Source: Candidatus Altimarinota bacterium | GTDB lineage: Bacteria > Patescibacteriota > Gracilibacteria > 1-14-2-50-48-13 | Direction: 5' to 3' | Length of the DNA stretch: 64,000 nucleotides | Assembly: GCA_046314355.1 (NCBI GenBank) | Contig: JBKBWQ010000001.1 | Coordinates: forward strand, 256,001 to 320,000 | Shown here: positions 53,427-62,455 of the stretch, piece by piece | Layout: each line of letters starts with the position of its first letter | Position numbering within the stretch: the first letter of the stretch is position 1 | The notes under the pieces: model-generated | What the model was told of the DNA's origin: nothing | Database searches by the model: none | What the model saw: the letters and a program-made list of their open reading frames with translations, nothing else | Translations under genes and position numbers: made by a program

Positions 53427-54968
53427 ATGAAATACGCACTCCTTCTCACAAGTTTCTTCCTAGCTTTTTCTCTTCAGGCAAGCCCCATATTGGCTCAAGA
53501 TATCGCTCCTACAGTATCTACCATTGATCTGCAAAACAGCATATCGCCAATTATTACCGGGAAGTCAGAAATCGAGATTGGTAAGCGTCTCTATCTGGAT
53601 GCTGGAAGCTCCTCAGTACCACAGAATACACCACTACAGTATATATGGACGATTAATGATCAAAGTACACAGGAAGGTAAAGAGACCTTTTATACTTTTG
53701 ATACGCCAGGAGAATATACAATAAGTCTGACAATCAAGAGTGATACGGCATCGAAGACAGTTATGCGAAAAATATTTGTCTATAGAGAGATGGTCTCATT
53801 TCTATACAATGGTCCTCTTGCATCTTTTACGAGCAACATACAATCTGCTCAAGAACTAGCAAAAAATAATGGTATTTTTCTAAATCTCATTCAAGGAGAT
53901 GATGGTAGTCCTATCTTAACAGAAGATGCAGTCTACAGAGCACTTTCAGGAAAGCTTGATTCTGTTAAGAACTCACAAACGCTTATTGCAGGACCGTATC
54001 CTACAGATGTATTGCCAGCACTGAATAAGCTTGGATATGATCAGGATAGTGAAGGCACTCATGTGATAATACTTACAACAAATGAACCAATTTGGTTATT
54101 TAATAATGTTATTGCAAGGTTATCGCGTCTAGTAGATGCAAAAGAATTGATCCTTATTCAGCAGGACCCGTTTGCTGTACTGAACTTCTTTTTACAGAGT
54201 ACTGACATAGAGCATTTTAAACAAAAGTTGCCAGAAAAAGATTATGCAATTATCTCAAAAAATACTTCACCGGGAATGAGATGGGCCTTATTATCTCAGG
54301 GACTGAATAAGGCTATTGAAAATGGGATACCAGCATCAGTACTTTCATTTTTACTGATAGTTCCATTAATTCTTACATGGATTGCTTTTTTCAAACAGGT
54401 AATCGGTATTGAAACATTCGGTCTATTAAAAACACTTATCCTTGTACTTTCCTTCTATATTCTAGGAATTAAGTATGGGAGTTTCATACTACTCTACGTC
54501 ATTCTTATGGGAGTACTTATACGAATAGTACTTTCAAAATTCACGCTTTTTTATATACCAAAAGTAACACTAACACTTTCTTTTGCTACACTAGCCGTAC
54601 TTGGATTAATTATTATCGGCTCATACTTCAATCTTACATTCGGTATAGATACATCTAGCGGACAAAGAGCACTGCTCTCATTAGTACCTATGCTTTTGAT
54701 TGCTTTTCAGGCAGATACACTTTCGTATCATATCTTTACAAAGAATTCCAATTACAAAGAACTGCTGATTCTACTTGCTACATACTTTGAGGTGGTTATT
54801 GCCTTTGGAATAGCCAGGATAGATTATCTTAGATATATACTTTTTGCATTACCTGAACTTATTATTATCGTATTTATACTACAATTCCTTATCTCTCGCT
54901 ACACTGGATTAAGAGCGATAGAAGTATTCCGTTTCAGAGAACTTCTTTTACAAGATCTTGAAGAATAA
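53427..54968 (+). CDS. Secreted PKD-domain plus 7TM membrane protein (7TM type that accompanies RimK-related ATP-grasp ligases)
   Basis: Signal peptide; PKD motifs LDAGSS, YIWT, YTFDTPGEYTISLTI; QVIGIETFG; terminal SRYTGLRAIEVFRFREL. Confidence 0.85.
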   Translation: MKYALLLTSFFLAFSLQASPILAQDIAPTVSTIDLQNSISPIITGKSEIEIGKRLYLDAGSSSVPQNTPLQYIWTINDQSTQEGKETFYTFDTPGEYTISLTIKSDTASKTVMRKIFVYREMVSFLYNGPLASFTSNIQSAQELAKNNGIFLNLIQGDDGSPILTEDAVYRALSGKLDSVKNSQTLIAGPYPTDVLPALNKLGYDQDSEGTHVIILTTNEPIWLFNNVIARLSRLVDAKELILIQQDPFAVLNFFLQSTDIEHFKQKLPEKDYAIISKNTSPGMRWALLSQGLNKAIENGIPASVLSFLLIVPLILTWIAFFKQVIGIETFGLLKTLILVLSFYILGIKYGSFILLYVILMGVLIRIVLSKFTLFYIPKVTLTLSFATLAVLGLIIIGSYFNLTFGIDTSSGQRALLSLVPMLLIAFQADTLSYHIFTKNSNYKELLILLATYFEVVIAFGIARIDYLRYILFALPELIIIVFILQFLISRYTGLRAIEVFRFRELLLQDLEE

Positions 54969-54971
54969 TCT

Positions 54972-57410
54972 ATGGCAAATTTTTCTGACATATTGGGTAT
55001 TAACGCTAGACATCTTCTTTTTATAAAAAAATATAATCCGGATGATGCTATTATATTTGCCGATAATAAACTTAAGACAAAGAGGTTTCTTGAAGCAAGA
55101 GGTGTCCCGGTACCAAAACTTGCAGGCACAATAAGGAATTTTACTGAGCTTGATAATTTTCCATTACCAACATTACCAGGACAAATAGTAATCAAGCCTA
55201 ATGCAAGTTCAGGAGGTCAGGGGATTATTGTACTTGGCGAAAAAAATTCTACAGGCTGGAAAAAAAGTAGCGGTGAAGATATTTCGCTGCAGGAGGTAAG
55301 AAGACATATTCATGATATCCTTTCTGGTGCGTATTCAAAAAATGGACAGAGCGATATCTGTCTTATTGAAAAGAGAATCATCAGTCATGAAAAGTTAGCG
55401 GCTATTTCCTATAAGGGACTTCCTGATATACGAATCATCGTATTCAATATGGTTCCTGTAATGGCTATGCTCCGTCTCCCTACAATTCTTTCCGACGGAA
55501 AGGCAAACATGCATCAGGGAGGTATTGGAGCAGGGATAGATATTGCGAAAGGAGAAATTACATACCTTTCACAATTTAATAAAATCATCGATGACATCCC
55601 AGGAATTGGTGATGTACGCGGATATAAGATTCCTTATTGGGATAAAATTCTCCAGATGGCGGTAAAAAGCCAGATGATTACCGGAGTGGGATACTTGGGT
55701 GTGGATATCGCACTTGATAGAAATGGACCTATGGTTCTTGAAATGAATGCGCGGGCAGGTCTAGGCATCCAGTTAGCTAATATGGCACCGCTTCGGAAAA
55801 GATTAAATATGGTTGAGAAACTTAAAGTAAAATCCATAGAAAAGGGAATCAGAATTGCAAAAGATCTTTTCGGAAGACAAATAGATCGTGATATTGAGCA
55901 GGTTTCAGGAAAAACAGTTATCGGAACGAGAGAAATAGTTACTCTTTATTTTAAGGAAGGACCAAAAGAAATACTTGGTAAAATTAACCCCTCAATCCAG
56001 GAAAATTATATTGATCGCCAGCTTTTTGAAGAGCTTATTGCAAAAAAACCCTATCTACAACAAGGTGATGACTCAATTCGGCTAAAATATAAACTCACTG
56101 ATGAGAAAACGAAAAGTATTTTTAAACCTTTAGATTTAGGAGATAAAAAGTATCAATTAATTTTGGGAAGAAAAGAACTTAAGAGCCTTTTGATAGACCC
56201 GTATAAATATAAGTTCAATGAGATTCCATATAAACCCGCATTAAATTTATTATTACCTGAAAAAACAGAGGAAGCTGAGCGTAACGCACTTATCAAAAAA
56301 TGGTTTGAAGTAGATCAGTCGCTTGCACGTATTGAAAGAAATTTACAGGTAAAATTTTCTCTTTTTCCACTCAATTATCAAACTGAGATGGAAAAATTCA
56401 TCGAATGTGAGGGACAATATAATCCATTTTTCATCTATAAAAATGACCCCGAAAGCTACGAACATATAAAAAATGATCTTGATGCAGTACATATTAATAC
56501 TCAGGAGTTTCAGGGACATATCTTTGCAGCAAAGAAGAACGAACTATTTACAAAACTTGAAATGTTTCACTGTATGGCAAAGGATGCTCATGAATTTACC
56601 AGATTATCTGAGGAACTCTATATCACATGTGATCCTGTTCTTTTTGAAGCGGCAGAAGCAGAAATTGTACGGAAAAAAGAAACTTTAGGATTTTTGATCC
56701 CGAAAGAGGAAACTTATGGATTAGAAGAAATTAAAAATGAGATTACTGCACTTTTTAAAAAATATAAACTTACTAAATGGAATATAAAAGTTCGTAATCA
56801 CGCTAGTTCACGTATAAGCGTAAGCAAATCAAAAAAACGCATTCTCTATCTAGCATCTGATATAGAAATAGAAAAACACCTCCTCCCACAAGTACTTGCA
56901 CATGAAGTAGAAACGCATGTACTACGTCTGGAAAATGCTCTTCAACAGCCATATGAGATATTTAGAACAGGTTTTGCAAACTATCTTGAAACAGAAGAAG
57001 GACTTGCTATCTATAACCAAGCATGCAAAAGCGACGTGGTATCACTAAAGGATTTCACGGCAGCAATCAATTATGTAAAAACATATAATATTCTGAATAA
57101 AAGTTTTGAAGAAGCTGCACATGGATATCTGCAGTCAAGAAATAAGGCGGAACTACTCAATTATGAAATGTATCAGAGTATATTTAAAAGTATTTTAAGA
57201 GTGAAGAGAGGACTTGGAGATACATCGCATCATGGTGGATATGCAAAAGATCTTGTATACTTTGCTGGATATAGAAAAATTGTGGACTTCGTTGAGTCAG
57301 GAGGAAATATAAAAAATTTGTATTTTGGAAAAATATCTCTACAATCTCTAGATGATGTTACCTTCATGCAGGAGCTCAAAGAACCGAAAATATTACCTGA
57401 TTTCTATTAA
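54972..57410 (+). CDS. Tri-domain fusion: alpha-L-glutamate-ligase-like ATP-grasp, inactive RimK-associated aspartic-protease domain, DUF1704 (MATCAP-like) metallocarboxypeptidase
   Basis: ILGINAR, DNKLKTK, VIKPNASSGGQGI, GLPDIRII, ANMHQGG, LEMNARAGL; middle VIGTRE...KINPS...ILGRKEL...IDP; AHEVETH, ETEEGLA, RVKRG, AKDLVY. Confidence 0.85.
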   Translation: MANFSDILGINARHLLFIKKYNPDDAIIFADNKLKTKRFLEARGVPVPKLAGTIRNFTELDNFPLPTLPGQIVIKPNASSGGQGIIVLGEKNSTGWKKSSGEDISLQEVRRHIHDILSGAYSKNGQSDICLIEKRIISHEKLAAISYKGLPDIRIIVFNMVPVMAMLRLPTILSDGKANMHQGGIGAGIDIAKGEITYLSQFNKIIDDIPGIGDVRGYKIPYWDKILQMAVKSQMITGVGYLGVDIALDRNGPMVLEMNARAGLGIQLANMAPLRKRLNMVEKLKVKSIEKGIRIAKDLFGRQIDRDIEQVSGKTVIGTREIVTLYFKEGPKEILGKINPSIQENYIDRQLFEELIAKKPYLQQGDDSIRLKYKLTDEKTKSIFKPLDLGDKKYQLILGRKELKSLLIDPYKYKFNEIPYKPALNLLLPEKTEEAERNALIKKWFEVDQSLARIERNLQVKFSLFPLNYQTEMEKFIECEGQYNPFFIYKNDPESYEHIKNDLDAVHINTQEFQGHIFAAKKNELFTKLEMFHCMAKDAHEFTRLSEELYITCDPVLFEAAEAEIVRKKETLGFLIPKEETYGLEEIKNEITALFKKYKLTKWNIKVRNHASSRISVSKSKKRILYLASDIEIEKHLLPQVLAHEVETHVLRLENALQQPYEIFRTGFANYLETEEGLAIYNQACKSDVVSLKDFTAAINYVKTYNILNKSFEEAAHGYLQSRNKAELLNYEMYQSIFKSILRVKRGLGDTSHHGGYAKDLVYFAGYRKIVDFVESGGNIKNLYFGKISLQSLDDVTFMQELKEPKILPDFY

Positions 57411-57418
57411 CTATTCCT

Positions 57419-58081
57419 ATGATCATTTTCGATAATGTTACAAAAAAATTTGGGAGTAGAGCAATACTAGATTCTTTCAGTCTTCAGATCCAGGCCGCAG
57501 AGTTTGTTGCTATAATGGGACACTCTGGAGCAGGTAAATCTACAATGATCAATCTGCTGATAGGTCATCAGCGTCCCACAAGTGGTCAAATAATGATTGA
57601 CGGGGTACATATTGAAAACATGGATTTTAATATGCGACAGCTTTACCGCCGAAAGATTGGTATTGTCTTTCAGGATTATAAACTCTTACCAAAAAAGACA
57701 GTGTATGAGAATGTATCCTTTGCTATGGAAGTATGCGGAAATACTGATGAGGAAATACAAAAGAGAGTACCTGAAATACTCCACCAGGTTGGTCTTCTAG
57801 CAAGACAAGAACAGTATCCTGATGAACTCTCAGGTGGTGAACAGCAAAGATGTGCTATAGCTCGTGCATTAGTACATAATCCAAATCTTTTAATTGCAGA
57901 TGAGCCGACAGGAAATCTTGATCAGGAAACAGCAAAAGATATTATTAAGCTTTTGAGTGATATTAACAAAAACGGCACAACTATCATTATGACTACACAT
58001 AATCCAAAGCTTCTAGAGAACCTTACGTATAGACTTGTAGAACTGCATGAGGGGAAGCTGAAAGAATCAACGCATCATTAA
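57419..58081 (+). CDS. ftsE: FtsE-type ABC ATPase
   Basis: GHSGAGKST, IGIVFQDYKLL, LSGGEQQR, IADEPTGNLD; no ftsX follows. Confidence 0.85.
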   Translation: MIIFDNVTKKFGSRAILDSFSLQIQAAEFVAIMGHSGAGKSTMINLLIGHQRPTSGQIMIDGVHIENMDFNMRQLYRRKIGIVFQDYKLLPKKTVYENVSFAMEVCGNTDEEIQKRVPEILHQVGLLARQEQYPDELSGGEQQRCAIARALVHNPNLLIADEPTGNLDQETAKDIIKLLSDINKNGTTIIMTTHNPKLLENLTYRLVELHEGKLKESTHH

Positions 58082-59412
58082 TACTCCGAAATACTATTTA
58101 TAAACTGTAGTACTTTCGTGTGATTTGGATTAGTATAATCGTATTTCCCAATAGTTAAGTCAGGGAAGGGAAAATGGTTATGATAGTATTCTTCGTAATA
58201 ACTCCATGTAGAGATATTGCCCAGAGTATAAATCATATCTTTAGTAAAACAAAACCCTTCGGAAAGCCCTGAAGTACCTCTAAAGGTTCTTGTGGTTCTT
58301 GTCCAGGCAAGATCTACTGCTGTTTGCTTTGCAGTTTCAAGAGCAACACCATGAAGTAGTTCAAAATAGAAATAGAAATCATAGGAAAAATTAAAAATCT
58401 CTCGAAAATTTCTTTTTTTTCCAACCATTCCTTTTGTAAAAGCGATTGAAAGGTATCTATCAATTCCAAATAATAGAGCACAGTCTTCATTAAAAACCTG
58501 TTCCCATACTGTAGTAGGTCCTTCAGATACTTTTTCAAAATTGGCGAATCCTTTACCTAAAAGCATTATTCTCGAATTCAGTCCTTTAATTGCCTGCTGA
58601 ACATGGTATCCAAGTTCATGAATAAGCAATTCCGAAAGCCGGTGAAAATCTACAGTTTTCGTAGTAGGAATCACTACCTCTTTAAGGTTATGGTCTACTG
58701 CAATACTATCAAGACTTTTCTCACGCAGTACGATTGAGTAGAGATTTTTTGTATCTATAAGAGATCTATACTCTTCAAATACGGCAGCAATCTCTTCTGC
58801 AGTGAATATATCTTTCTCCTTATATTTTTGAAGAATATTTAATGCATCCTGAAATTGTGTGTAACAATTATTTTTTGTCCAAAGCATACACTCTTGGGAC
58901 GGAAGGAAAGGATTTTGTTCTTTTCCGCTTTTTTCTAAATATTGTAATAATTTTTCAGAACCATGATTTGCCTCTTTCTTAGATATGAATTCATTTAAAT
59001 TGTCCATCAGGTGCATGGTAGTTTCTCTTTCAGGAGCTCCATAGAGCTTTTCCGACAAGATCTGTACTTTTTCTTCATTGCCTTCGGAGACGGCATTTAA
59101 AAAACTTATTATGATCTGTTGTTCTTCTATTTTATTACAATATATTTCTTTTATTATTGAATGATATGACGATTCTTCAATGGATTTGCTAAAATCTGTA
59201 AGTTTTAATGCTGTTTTTGATAAATGCTCTTTATCAATAAATGGGTAAAGAAAAGTAGGATTTTCAATCTTTCCAGCCAGAAACAGTTGTTTCTGATTTT
59301 TCCAGTAGTCTGCATCACTTTCTAAAAGTGACAGAATACGAATATCTGCAACTTCTTTTTGAAATCGCAGAAATAGTTCATGATCAAGAGCAGTGACATT
59401 TTTACTAGGCAT
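58078..59412 (-). CDS. DUF1704/MATCAP-like metallocarboxypeptidase, paralog A
   Basis: NPTFLYP, IHELGYH, VSEG, RTFRGT, FTKDMIY, GKYD. Confidence 0.8.
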   Translation of the reverse strand: MPSKNVTALDHELFLRFQKEVADIRILSLLESDADYWKNQKQLFLAGKIENPTFLYPFIDKEHLSKTALKLTDFSKSIEESSYHSIIKEIYCNKIEEQQIIISFLNAVSEGNEEKVQILSEKLYGAPERETTMHLMDNLNEFISKKEANHGSEKLLQYLEKSGKEQNPFLPSQECMLWTKNNCYTQFQDALNILQKYKEKDIFTAEEIAAVFEEYRSLIDTKNLYSIVLREKSLDSIAVDHNLKEVVIPTTKTVDFHRLSELLIHELGYHVQQAIKGLNSRIMLLGKGFANFEKVSEGPTTVWEQVFNEDCALLFGIDRYLSIAFTKGMVGKKRNFREIFNFSYDFYFYFELLHGVALETAKQTAVDLAWTRTTRTFRGTSGLSEGFCFTKDMIYTLGNISTWSYYEEYYHNHFPFPDLTIGKYDYTNPNHTKVLQFINSISEY

Positions 59413-59521: not shown

Positions 59522-60895
59522 TTATTCTTCTTCTTCACCGTCACAGTCTGCAAAAAAATCATATTTTGCTTTTGGTACAATATTTGTAATCTCATTTATT
59601 ACTTTCATATGATCCATGTTTGTTGGGTCATATTTACCTATAAATAGATTAGGTAAATCCTGACCTAATTCATACATTTTGGTCATATATTGCCATATAC
59701 GGATGTTTCCATCCCTATAGCAAATATCCTTTGTAAATGCATTACCTGCGGAACAGTCAGTTCCACGAAACGTACGTATACATCTGTTCCACGCATCATT
59801 ATTAGCTTTCTCTTCTGATTCAGAAAGTGATTTACCTTTCTTAGTTGCTTCATACTGATATAAAGTTTTCAGAATGTTAAACACCTGTCTAAAATCTCTT
59901 TCAACGCCATCTAATCCTAAAGCAGCGCCGATGGAAAGATAAGCTTCGGGACGACCGAAGTCTTTCACTTTTCCATCATAACTCTGTTCCCAGACAGTGG
60001 TGAGGCCTTCTTCACCTTGAAGATAACCACTTAATCCTAAACCAAGTAATTTAAGGTTAGAACCTTCACCATTTTCACGACGTTGGACATGAGTACCAAT
60101 CTCATGACCAATGAGTTTTTCTAATTTTTCCCCAGTTACCTCACGGCTAGCAGGAATATTAACTGTCTTTTTTTCCTGTGATACTGATATTGCAGTTTTA
60201 CTGCTTTCAGTAATCTCAATTTTAAACTCACCGCTAGCACCAACATTGTTAAGAGCTTTTTCAAAAAATTCCTTTATCTCAGGAGCGTTATACTTAGATT
60301 TAGAATCAATTATAATGCCATGAAACAAACTTTTAAACTGTTTCATGAATTGCTCTTTCGTCCAAGCCACAACTTCTTTAGATGGAAGGGAAATATTAAA
60401 TGCATGATTCCCTGCCTGTGGTAAAATCTCAAGCAGTTTTTTAGCTGCAATTCCGATATCTCCATCTACGGAGATATTTGCTTCTGCATCCTTTCTTATT
60501 TCAGATAAAGTGTAGAAGTAAATATCAGTATCCGGTATACCGTTTACATCTGCATTAAATGCTTCAAATAAATTCATATCTCCATCTAGTACGGCATCCA
60601 GCAAAGAAAGTTCATTGAGTTTTTCGATAATCTTTACTGTGTAAGCTTCTCTGTATACTTCAGGTAAATCTGAAGTATCAATTGCTTTCAGTGCATTAGC
60701 TTTAGATTCAATATTCTCTCGTGTAATTAATGGATAATCCAATCTAGGATTTTCAATTTTATAAGAGAGAAATAAAGCTTTCTGTTCATCTCTATAGGCC
60801 TTATCACCATCTAAAGATTCGTAAGCTTCAAATGAACCTGCCGAAGCAAAACTTGCATAAATAGCTAAATCAACAGCTGAATTATTTTGTACCAT
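59522..60895 (-). CDS. DUF1704/MATCAP-like metallocarboxypeptidase, paralog B
   Basis: NPRLDYP, GHEIGTH, GEEGL, RTFRGT, FTKDICY, GKYDP; strong AGGAGG SD; ends ...DGEEEE. Confidence 0.85.
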   Translation of the reverse strand: MVQNNSAVDLAIYASFASAGSFEAYESLDGDKAYRDEQKALFLSYKIENPRLDYPLITRENIESKANALKAIDTSDLPEVYREAYTVKIIEKLNELSLLDAVLDGDMNLFEAFNADVNGIPDTDIYFYTLSEIRKDAEANISVDGDIGIAAKKLLEILPQAGNHAFNISLPSKEVVAWTKEQFMKQFKSLFHGIIIDSKSKYNAPEIKEFFEKALNNVGASGEFKIEITESSKTAISVSQEKKTVNIPASREVTGEKLEKLIGHEIGTHVQRRENGEGSNLKLLGLGLSGYLQGEEGLTTVWEQSYDGKVKDFGRPEAYLSIGAALGLDGVERDFRQVFNILKTLYQYEATKKGKSLSESEEKANNDAWNRCIRTFRGTDCSAGNAFTKDICYRDGNIRIWQYMTKMYELGQDLPNLFIGKYDPTNMDHMKVINEITNIVPKAKYDFFADCDGEEEE

Positions 60896-61021: not shown

Positions 61022-61288
61022 TTATTCAGCTTTTGCCTTAGTAGCTTTCTCAGCCTTTACTTCTTTAGTAATCTTAAACTCTTCCTTCATTTTTGCAGTA
61101 TTGAAACCATACTTCTGCATTCGAAGCTCAATCTTTGCTACTGCATTGCTAAGCCATTTAGTATGACCTTCTTTCTGGATTCTTTCTCCAAGTTTCTTAA
61201 GAATTTTTACACTAGCATCCATTTTAGAAGTATTGCTAGGACCTTTCTTATTTACCTTATAAATTTGGCGGGCTTTACCTGATTGCAC
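61022..61288 (-). CDS. Small highly basic protein (88 aa from GTG 61288, or 66 aa from ATG 61222)
   Basis: Lys/Arg-rich, AAG/GAG-rich codons like fusA and rpsA, own terminator; family not recognised. Confidence 0.65.
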   Translation of the reverse strand: MQSGKARQIYKVNKKGPSNTSKMDASVKILKKLGERIQKEGHTKWLSNAVAKIELRMQKYGFNTAKMKEEFKITKEVKAEKATKAKAE

Positions 61289-61426
61289 GGTGTCGTTCAG
61301 TGAAAATATAAAAATTCGTCGGAACAAATGTGAGGAAACTATACTAAAAGAAACAGCTAAGCGCAAGAGAATTTGAGTAGAATACTTATAATTATCTAAA
61401 GAAATGATAAGTATTAGTAAGGGAAT

Positions 61427-62455
61427 CTAGAAGTTGAATTTATTTTTAAGAATTACGTCAACGGTACTATCGTTTACGCTTTCAATAGGAGTCTGGATCC
61501 CTGGAGTGGCGTTTAATTCAATAATCTTAATTTCATTTATAGATTTACAGTTCTTTAAATCAGCATGAAGTACATCAATTCCGACAATCTCCAATCCCAT
61601 ACGTATTGCCAGATCTTCAAATACTTTAGCGATCTTAGGATCAATTTTATCTGTAATTATTTTTTCCGTTCCGCCTACAGAATTATTACATTTATAAGAA
61701 AGAAATATTTTTTTTCCTTTAGGCAAAATACTCTCGCGAGTAACTCCTTGCTCTGAGAGAAGAATATCTAACTCTTCGGTCAGAAGAACTTTATTATAAA
61801 ATTCAGTATACAAAACAGCCCCTCTATTTGGGTCATCATTGAGCGTTTCTATTAATTCATTGATGGTTTTCTTCCCATCACCTATAACATAAGGCTTAAT
61901 TCTATGGGTGACCCAGTGACATTTCCCAAACAGAATAAAGAATCTGTAGTCTTCTCCTTCAATAAATTCCTGAATAAGAAAATTTTTTTTATTTCTTGTA
62001 AAACTCACGGCATCTGCGATAAATAATCTTAATACCTCTAAGGTCTGTGTATTATTCCATACATGGACTCCGTTCCCGTGGGCACTATCTACGGGTTTGA
62101 TAACTATCGTCGTTGGTGATGCTGCAATAATCTGTTCGACTTCATCGAGTGAATCGATACTATAGATATTACTCTGAATTGTAGGGTATTTCCAATGATT
62201 AAGTACCTGATAGGTAAGTAACTTATCATTGCATATTTTACTCATTGAGGACGAATTATCCAAACTACATCCTTTAAATATAACTTCTTTTCCATCCTTA
62301 GAGAGAATATAAGTACTTTTTTTCTCGTCAATCATCTGAAGAGTATATCCTGTCGCCTGCGCTCTTTTAATAATAGTGGCTGGGCTGATCGTCAAATAGT
62401 TCATATTCATCTTGTATTCAAAATAATTAATTGAGTGAATCAAATCAAGATTCAT
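61427..62455 (-). CDS. Stand-alone ATP-grasp ligase (cyanophycin-synthetase/GshF ATP-grasp-like)
   Basis: ICNDKLLT, VIKPVDSAHGNGV, IQEFIEGEDYR, VIGDGKKTINELI...N.DPNRG, GIDV, IIELNATPG; start may be 62410. Confidence 0.88.
   Translation of the reverse strand: MNLDLIHSINYFEYKMNMNYLTISPATIIKRAQATGYTLQMIDEKKSTYILSKDGKEVIFKGCSLDNSSSMSKICNDKLLTYQVLNHWKYPTIQSNIYSIDSLDEVEQIIAASPTTIVIKPVDSAHGNGVHVWNNTQTLEVLRLFIADAVSFTRNKKNFLIQEFIEGEDYRFFILFGKCHWVTHRIKPYVIGDGKKTINELIETLNDDPNRGAVLYTEFYNKVLLTEELDILLSEQGVTRESILPKGKKIFLSYKCNNSVGGTEKIITDKIDPKIAKVFEDLAIRMGLEIVGIDVLHADLKNCKSINEIKIIELNATPGIQTPIESVNDSTVDVILKNKFNF

Follow-up and report, generated by a model that had tools for sequence, protein, structure and literature searches.

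Why does a polypeptide that carries both a ligase and a peptidase also hold, between the two, a protease domain without its catalytic motif? The question is raised by an open reading frame (ORF) of 812 amino acids at 54972..57410 in the window, i.e., the stretch of 64,000 nucleotides of a Candidatus Altimarinota bacterium (assembly GCA_046314355.1, contig JBKBWQ010000001.1, positions 256,001 to 320,000) that was analyzed here. Coordinates refer to the window, and features lie on the forward strand unless noted. The ORF encodes an ATP-grasp ligase, a retropepsin-like domain that appears to be dead, and a MATCAP metallocarboxypeptidase. A preliminary description, made from the sequence alone, had proposed that the usual aspartic protease partner was inactivated, perhaps kept for dimerization, and functionally replaced by the metallocarboxypeptidase. 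This interpretation was supported, with qualifications. The gene probably encodes a cytoplasmic three-domain enzyme paired with the seven-transmembrane-helix (7TM) protein encoded upstream, as the Patescibacteria version of the Rim/Rlo ligase-peptidase systems. The new observation is the coupling of the fusion gene with a 7TM gene of the RloB-like kind, whose product has a clade-specific Glu-Glu C-terminus.

The three-domain gene and its outer domains

The ligase domain (55014..55820, residues 15-283) is of the RloC or alpha-L-glutamate-ligase-like type and matched the Pfam family ATPgrasp_ST (PF14397, the sugar-transfer-associated type) with an E value of 2.6e-67 (227.4 bits, cut-off 31.4). 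At the other end of the protein, residues 474-807 matched MATCAP/DUF1704 (PF08014; E 1.9e-24, 86.8 bits, cut-off 27), so that a ligase and a peptidase are indeed found on one polypeptide, both above the Pfam cut-offs within 812 amino acids. The NCBIfam model of the QEGLA motif proteins, TIGR02421, extended the C-terminal domain to residues 448-808 (56313..57395) with 100.7 bits, under its equivalog cut-off of 338.65. The corresponding model for the ligase, TIGR02291 (alpha-L-glutamate ligase-like), gave 275.8 bits. Since this is below the equivalog cut-off of 314.2, the protein was regarded as a member of the PF14397 family and not as an equivalog. RimK models were weak on the ATP-grasp domain (PF08443, E 1.4e-4; TIGR00768, 43.6 bits against a cut-off of 143.4). 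Because the ATP-grasp match starts at residue 15, there is no room for a signal peptide.

The alignment A1, built from 40 homologous sequences, showed K75, D245, E257, N259 and R261 of the ATP-grasp domain to be invariant, and we take these residues to act in ATP and Mg binding. Also invariant are H644, E645, H649, E676, G677 and A679 of the MATCAP domain. They fall in HEVETH (56901..56918, residues 644-649), the HExxxH metal and catalytic motif with H644, E645 and H649, and in TEEGLA (56991..57008, residues 674-679), the 'QEGLA' motif, which presumably supplies the third metal ligand; an appended DUF1704 domain with intact HEVETH and EEG had been described from the sequence and is present as such. 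By phmmer, the C-terminal domain matched human KIAA0895L/MATCAP (7z5g) at E 2.8e-5, and in the alignment HEVETH falls on HEIGTH, TEEGLA on TEEGLA and KRGLGDTS on KRGQTDTS. Entry 7z6s has Gln in place of the aligned HExxxH Glu, and the E281A form of human TMCP1 has been reported as catalytically dead (PMC10499314). Both outer domains thus look active at the level of conserved residues, which for the ligase are those of the ATP-grasp core.

A protein search with the 812-amino-acid ORF gave 909 homologous proteins at E<=1e-3, and a relative is encoded in 389 species genomes, nearly all of them labelled Gracilibacteria, Peregrinibacteria, Peribacteria or Patescibacteria. The public names of these homologs mention the outer domains alone, and the middle domain carries no annotation. 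A literature search outside subscription journals found no paper on ATP-grasp::MATCAP/DUF1704 fusions. Among the papers listed for MATCAP and DUF1704, none treated bacterial homologs by title or abstract; among those listed for QEGLA and the family accessions, most matches were Plasmodium gene identifiers, and a QEGLA protein appeared solely in one transcriptome table.

Fold of the middle domain

Residues of about 290-447 matched no Pfam family, even at E<=10. The preliminary description had seen the RimK-associated retropepsin-like pattern in this region, and all of the motifs quoted for it were located: VIGTRE at residues 316-321, KINPS at 337-341, ILGRKEL at 397-403 and LLIDP at 406-410. 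The retropepsin-like pseudo-protease domain was delimited at 55908..56207 (residues about 313-412) from an AlphaFold2 model, fold matches and sequence profiles. The model, computed without templates for residues 300-425 (predicted local distance difference test, pLDDT, 83.9; predicted template-modelling score, pTM, 0.73), showed a retropepsin fold. The closest structures were RloA2 (9g59_B; Z 12.4, root-mean-square deviation (rmsd) 2.3 Å over 97 residues) and Lpg0085 (2pma_B; Z 12.4, rmsd 2.5 Å over 95 residues), followed by a foamy-virus protease with Z 9.8 and by retroviral and Ddi1 proteases with Z 7-10. The best Foldseek matches of the same model were RloA2 (1.2e-4) and RloA (1.6e-4).

Profile searches pointed to the same family. 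The middle-domain profile A2, made from 41 fusion-family sequences, was searched against 1.84 billion cluster representatives. It matched 473 of them at E<=1e-3, including proteins of PF05618 (Zn_protease, the RimB/RloA family) at E values down to 1e-25. In a Pfam scan of 35 of the best 150 A2 matches, PF05618 was matched above its cut-off by 6/6 short standalone proteins and by most of the fused forms without MATCAP. When the 41 fusion-family members were scanned, PF13650 was matched in 12 and PF13975 in 10, and PF05618 was not among the families listed. Against PDB sequences, A2, which contains fusion-family sequences alone, gave chance-level matches only. The bridging profile A3 matched RloA2 9g59 (3.3e-9), RloA 9g58 (1.5e-7), Ddi1 (5.7e-6) and Lpg0085 2pma (5.1e-5). 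Finally, a profile built from 31 standalone relatives that carry DTG, and free of fusion sequences, scored the window domain at 43.0 bits, compared with 6.7 for the best of 2000 shuffles; the 31 proteins were chosen via the A2 search, which makes the profile not wholly independent, while their Pfam matches are independent. On profile and model evidence, then, the middle region is a retropepsin fold that lies nearest to the RimB/RloA family.

Loss of the catalytic motif and of the substrate channel

The middle region aligns across the homologs without large gaps, and some of them have AKIDTG or AKMDSG where the window protein has GKINPS. The place of the catalytic D-T-G is occupied by N339-P340-S341 (codons AAC CCC TCA, 55986..55994), as had been noted in the preliminary description together with the inactivation that it implies: the Asp is changed to Asn, and the flanking T and G to P and S. 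A change from D to N is the standard inactivating change in aspartic proteases. In RloA, the D48N form served as the inactive control and was catalytically dead (PMC11957051).

The basic residues K46, R114 and R137, which are listed as binding poly-Glu in RloA (PMC11957051), were mapped onto the fusion protein by our reading of the profile alignments. The equivalent of K46 is retained in the window (K337), that of R114 is D, and the column equivalent to R137, whose position depends on the alignment, contains L. Counts were made on 193 full-length fusion proteins, 28 with a canonical D[TS]G motif and 165 degenerate. At the R114-equivalent position, K was found in 28/28 canonical fusions vs 35/165 degenerate ones, and K or R at the K46-equivalent position in 26/28 vs 55/165. 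The residues of the substrate channel therefore decay along with the catalytic motif, which argues against a hidden alternative chemistry. Since the window domain lacks the defining catalytic feature, it was classified as a pseudo-peptidase of the RimB/RloA fold and not as a RimB/RloA peptidase. As judged from its sequence, the middle domain is dead as a protease, and no other retropepsin of the RimB/RloA family (PF05618) was found in the window's own genome, which is 98% complete.

It could be argued that the middle region is a mere linker with a chance resemblance to retropepsins, or a still-active protease that uses other residues. The missing Pfam match and the failure of the fusion-only profile to find a PDB relative would suit such an explanation, but the Z score of the fold match, the distance between 43.0 bits and the shuffled sequences, the homologs with an intact motif at the aligned place, and the recovery of PF05618 proteins all speak against it, as do the inactivating D to N change and the disappearance of the adjoining channel residues. 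We consider this explanation to be close to negligible, and the linker reading was not supported after fold and profile comparison.

Motif loss and the acquisition of MATCAP

The association between the lost motif and the added carboxypeptidase was studied on the 150 best middle-domain representatives, which were classed by local hidden Markov models of the three domains (with Pfam added for P0192). Six representatives without a readable motif were set aside, leaving 144. D[TS]G was present in 5/44 representatives with MATCAP and in 96/100 without it; the latter comprise 34/36 proteins with ATP-grasp and retropepsin only and 62/64 others, either standalone or joined to a 7TM module. Of the four exceptions without MATCAP, P0170 and P0200, placed by the tree within MATCAP clades, probably derive from truncated gene calls, and P0129 and P0245 are short proteins that were left off the tree. 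A larger set of 198 non-redundant fusion proteins contains 29 with a canonical motif (DTG in 15, DSG in 14), so that most homologs bearing DUF1704 lack DTG, and the first position of the motif is occupied by N in 101 proteins and by D in 80. The ligase was found in 127 genomes of a 401-genome sample of the window's phylum, and in the 30 loci taken from this sample all 28 two-domain proteins keep K[IVT]DTG.

On a tree of 131 rows with outgroups, the canonical status of the motif requires 10 changes, nine of them forced by well-supported branches, and on a tree of 193 rows it requires seven. At the base of the 131-row tree branch DTG proteins, namely those with two domains and several with three. 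The crown clade is mostly degenerate, and all 10 rows of the window's own clade (support 100) are degenerate. Since a regain of DTG from NP- is unlikely, the tree was read as many independent losses after the acquisition of MATCAP. The loss of DTG is thus linked to the presence of MATCAP strongly but not strictly, as far as sequences tell.

Retention of the dead domain

Despite the loss of its motif, the domain has not disappeared. For pairs with an ATP-grasp identity of 0.65-0.75, the identity of the retropepsin domain was 0.42 in degenerate and 0.51 in canonical proteins, and that of MATCAP 0.49 and 0.52 (the pairs are not independent). A value of 0.42 vs 0.51 at equal ATP-grasp identity indicates that the dead domain is still under constraint. 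Dimerization had been suggested as the reason, and a homodimer of the middle domain was predicted with an ipSAE interface score of 0.68 (runs 0.73, 0.55 and 0.68), compared with 0.00 for the best control. Contacts agreed by at least 70% between runs, with a partner pLDDT of at least 80; in the calibration of the score, the mark was met by 20/30 proteins solved as pairs and by 1/23 solved as single chains. The predicted interface is formed by the KINPS loop (337-341) and residues 400-411, the retropepsin arrangement. By analogy, activation of the ligase may be a second reason for keeping the domain, as RimB stimulates the ATPase of RimK about four-fold by direct contact and is needed for poly-Glu synthesis (PMC11957791).

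The 7TM partner and its Glu-Glu tail

The gene directly upstream (53427..54968) encodes an RloB-like membrane protein of 513 amino acids, and its stop codon lies 3 nucleotides ahead of the ATG of the fusion gene. From Pfam, NCBIfam, hydropathy and an AlphaFold2 model (pLDDT 75.7), the protein is made up of a signal peptide, a PKD domain, an alpha/beta ectodomain, seven transmembrane helices and a C-terminal helix ending in ...RFRELLLQDLEE. Pfam matches were 7TM_transglut (PF14402, 2.8e-16) and PKD_4 (7.1e-12), the hydropathy profile gave seven membrane segments after the signal peptide, and the NCBIfam RloB model matched the 7TM part only (38 bits, cut-off 900). Foldseek with the whole model found PKD domains only, with no transglutaminase fold and no clear match for the alpha/beta ectodomain, although a fold may have been missed. 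With the N-terminus outside and seven helices crossing the membrane, the C-terminal helix (497-512) is expected in the cytoplasm. The last two codons before TAA, GAA GAA (54960..54965), encode Glu-Glu, with a conservation of at least 90% for both E512 and E513 in the alignment A5.

Conservation of this ending was surveyed on the 71 loci for which 1.5 kb or more of upstream sequence was available. In 69 of them, an ORF of 250 amino acids or longer ends near the fusion gene, and 64 of these 69 terminate in EE, EEE or EEEE after a conserved GLR..EY.RFRE motif. The other five consist of three unrelated ORFs, of L042, where the 7TM gene is one gene further upstream and ends AEEE, and of L071, whose 7TM homolog ends FKQN. 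In four genomes with a non-adjacent 7TM homolog, the protein ends in EE or EEE there too; the 7TM gene in the genome of L005 ends in EE, and the genome of L056 gave no match for a 7TM homolog. Overall, 70/71 partners of the crown clade end in Glu-Glu, vs 0/40 outside it (0/27 two-domain partners, 0/2 deep MATCAP partners and 0/11 retropepsin::7TM fusions). Protein searches for the proteobacterial RloB returned only Patescibacteria relatives (16 and 11 matches), and PF14402 was absent from all 14 control genomes. Three loci labelled Oceanicoccus sp. or Nitrospirota (L005, L049 and L076) are in genomes of ~0.9-1.1 Mb with a three-domain gene of the Patescibacteria type and a 7TM partner, and their labels look doubtful.

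The RimK target, ribosomal protein S6, has a C-terminus that ends in Glu-Glu before RimK adds to it. RimK adds Glu to the C-terminus of RpsF (PMC11957051), and MATCAP/TMCP enzymes take C-terminal residues off acidic tails and shorten poly-Glu chains (PMC10499314). Since the Glu-Glu tail is conserved and both kinds of enzyme act on acidic C-termini, the tail of the partner is a natural candidate substrate. The cytoplasmic C-terminal ...EE tail of the 7TM protein may be named as the most likely substrate, although clearly less than half of our confidence is placed in it.

Proposed mechanism and alternative explanations

From sequence and models we infer the following enzymology for the three-domain protein. 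The ligase would add alpha-linked residues, most likely Glu, to a C-terminus, and the MATCAP domain would remove terminal residues one by one, in keeping with its eukaryotic relatives, which act as tail carboxypeptidases and deglutamylases. The length of the tail would be set by the balance of the two activities. The length-controlling or proofreading role suggested for the enzyme in the preliminary description is likewise putative. With exo-trimming built into the same chain, endo-protease chemistry would become dispensable and could decay repeatedly, and the dead domain would be kept as a non-catalytic module for dimerization and/or for ligase activation as RimB does on RimK. Applied to the partner, its ...RFRE..EE tail could be lengthened with glutamates by the ligase and shortened by MATCAP, a reversible switch on a membrane protein that is proposed here only tentatively.

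Several observations weigh against this proposal. Both NCBIfam equivalog scores are below their cut-offs, so Glu specificity is not transferable from RimK, and the ATP-grasp domain alone found no relative among PDB sequences at E<=1e-3. In P0243, retropepsin, 7TM and ATP-grasp form one chain, which leaves no free 7TM end and disfavors the tail as substrate. The Fisher test of motif against MATCAP (p 4e-25) is inflated by shared ancestry, the MATCAP-bearing proteins being largely one lineage. The trees were computed with FastTree only; long-branch joins were flagged at the base, and the deep order is tentative. Within the crown clade, a nested and well-supported clade keeps DTG/DSG in 28/41 rows, and so do the deep MATCAP-bearing proteins P0148, P0150, P0192, P0235, P0249, L115 and L117. 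These retained motifs indicate that MATCAP was gained before the loss, which it permitted rather than forced. In the idea of a functional replacement by the metallocarboxypeptidase, the part that holds is that motif loss tracks MATCAP; with seven deep proteins and the nested clade keeping the motif, the effect of MATCAP is permissive at best. As for dimerization, the predicted homodimer is a model that could reflect likeness to solved retropepsin dimers, and the role proposed for it in the preliminary description stands as a prediction.

Three other explanations were weighed. The protease may have decayed through a change of substrate, to the short ...EE tail of the crown clade, and not through the arrival of MATCAP. 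RloA cuts 8E and 10E reporters and does not cut those with 6 Glu or fewer (PMC11957051), and an endoprotease of the RimB/RloA type that requires ~8 consecutive Glu would be useless on an ...EE tail. Moreover, every degenerate motif among the loci belongs to a genome with an EE tail, the tails divide between the crown clade and the rest as counted above, and the MATCAP-bearing L115 and L117, outside the crown clade, keep DTG and have 7TM partners with basic tails. However, the deep MATCAP loci in this comparison are two only, and the crown-clade DTG/DSG proteins L017, L029, L046 and L065 also have EE-tailed partners, which means that the tail alone is not predictive. We regard this explanation as rather unlikely; it overlaps with the enzymology proposed above rather than opposing it.

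A doubtful but possible alternative is that the enzyme makes and trims a free product, such as poly-alpha-glutamate, a short peptide or an osmolyte, which the 7TM partner exports or senses. To our knowledge, no transport function has been described for the 7TM_transglut family, which counts against it, and a free product would leave unexplained the Glu-Glu fixed in 70/71 cytoplasmic C-termini of the partner. On the other hand, RimK with RimB yields free poly-alpha-L-glutamate (PMC11957791), the rlo genes have been linked to tolerance of hypo-osmotic conditions, with RloA working outside the cytoplasm (PMC11957051), and a QEGLA/MATCAP-family gene of Photobacterium is induced 27-fold at low salinity (PMC10308900). 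Ribosomal protein S6, which RimK modifies, is very unlikely to be the target of the enzyme, even though the enzyme shares superfamily and logic with RimK/RimB (PMC11957051): the ATP-grasp domain is of the RloC type (PF14397) with weak RimK models, and the fusion gene is coupled to a membrane-protein gene and not to ribosomal genes. The S6 gene of the same genome (L087 1426-1965; C1:1240394-1240933) has a 179-amino-acid ORF, compared with 90 positions in the Pfam model, and its long, charged C-terminal extension ends in ...PESEA and not in Glu-Glu; on this C-terminus S6 was rejected as the substrate.

Neighboring genes

Downstream of the fusion gene, at a distance of 9 nucleotides, starts a gene for an ABC-type ATPase of 220 amino acids (57419..58081). 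It is also present downstream in L001 and L002 (59-63% identity), and among more distant loci a weaker match was found in L033 only. Its end overlaps by 4 nucleotides that of a convergent standalone MATCAP/DUF1704 gene (58078..59412, reverse strand, 444 amino acids), which is accompanied by a second one (59522..60895, reverse strand, 457 amino acids). Both have an intact HExxxH motif. The two proteins share 33% identity between them and about 26% with the fused domain, and their C-termini read ...DCDGEEEE in one and ...NSISEY in the other. All three MATCAP copies of the genome lie within this locus. In L001, no standalone MATCAP gene was present in the 7 kb downstream; the downstream sequence of L002 extends over about 0.8 kb only.

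Upstream of the two standalone genes and on the same strand is a second ATP-grasp ligase (61427..62455, reverse strand, 342 amino acids), which matched TIGR02068 at 1.5e-51 and most resembles the ATP-grasp part of cyanophycin synthetase and GshAB; beside it lies an ORF of 114 amino acids (61022..61366, reverse strand). This ligase and the standalone MATCAP genes may form a second ligase/carboxypeptidase set that is convergent with the first. In Photobacterium damselae at low salinity, RimK was up 52-fold and the QEGLA (MATCAP-family) gene 27-fold, and the locus tag of the latter adjoins that of an annotated GshB, an ATP-grasp protein (PMC10308900). This suggests that the pairing of ATP-grasp and MATCAP, and a link to osmotic stress, extend to Proteobacteria.

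Significance

According to the Pseudomonas paper, it is an open question on which substrate, and by which chemistry, the Rlo system acts (PMC11957051). In the system described here, which is widespread in one bacterial lineage, a ligase, a former protease and a new peptidase are found in one chain beside a partner ending in Glu-Glu, which makes a specific substrate hypothesis testable. It also offers a repeated case of an enzyme domain turned pseudoenzyme once another hydrolase had been added to the chain, with at least nine state changes on the tree. Across hundreds of bacterial species, it puts the MATCAP family, functionally known from eukaryotic tubulin only, next to a tail ligase of the ATP-grasp type. 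If the partner tail is indeed the substrate, it would be a first candidate substrate for Rlo-type systems. The pair of a TTL-like ATP-grasp and MATCAP would then parallel, in bacteria, the tubulin tail code, which uses the same two enzyme families, and could mark a type of bacterial module ancestral to the eukaryotic pair.

Comparison with known systems

The RloABC system of Pseudomonas aeruginosa consists of a secreted retropepsin, a 7TM protein with an inactive transglutaminase, and an ATP-grasp protein, and deletion of rloB or rloC rescues a triple rloA mutant (Lormand et al. 2025, PMC11957051). The two systems share an ATP-grasp of the PF14397/TIGR02291 type, a 7TM_transglut partner and a retropepsin of the RloA/RimB fold, with adjacent and co-oriented genes. 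In contrast to the secreted and active RloA, the retropepsin of the window is fused behind the ligase, cytoplasmic by prediction and apparently dead, MATCAP has been added, and no other PF05618 gene was found in the 98%-complete genome. The ectodomain of the window's partner is PKD plus alpha/beta, without a detected transglutaminase fold, and the protein ends in Glu-Glu. The hosts also differ, since the window comes from Patescibacteria, whereas 96% of the RloB matches reported are from Proteobacteria (PMC11957051).

RimB cleaves poly-Glu tails, and in the RimBK hybrid a RimB domain stands N-terminal to RimK with an active protease (Little et al. 2025, PMC11957791). RimK/RimB and RimBK resemble the window protein in combining a Glu ligase, as a partner or by fusion, with a retropepsin-like peptidase of poly-Glu; unlike RimBK, the window protein has the ligase before the protease, belongs to another ATP-grasp subfamily, has lost the protease activity by all appearance and has gained a third domain.

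Closest in architecture are the two-domain ATPgrasp_ST::retropepsin proteins of other Patescibacteria (L090-L119, P0141, P0143 and others), which have the same domain order and an upstream 7TM partner. They differ in keeping K[IVT]DTG in 28/28, in being without MATCAP, and in having partners with basic tails, none of which (0/27) ends in EE. The same parts are also joined in other ways, namely, as retropepsin::7TM (about 340-380 amino acids), as two retropepsins::7TM and as retropepsin::7TM::ATP-grasp, besides ATP-grasp::retropepsin::YdjC and a retropepsin domain at the C-terminus of a class I lysyl-tRNA synthetase. These alternative fusion proteins (P0243, P0132, P0179, P0197, P0163 and others) all have DTG.

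With MATCAP/TMCP1-2 (KIAA0895L, KIAA0895), the C-terminal domain shares the Pfam family and the aligned HExxxH and TEEGLA motifs (7z5g). The eukaryotic enzymes are tubulin tail carboxypeptidases that oppose the ATP-grasp ligases TTL/TTLL (PMC10499314). In the bacterial protein, which has no tubulin to act on and matches its human relative only remotely (E 2.8e-5), the carboxypeptidase domain is covalently joined to the ligase that it presumably opposes.

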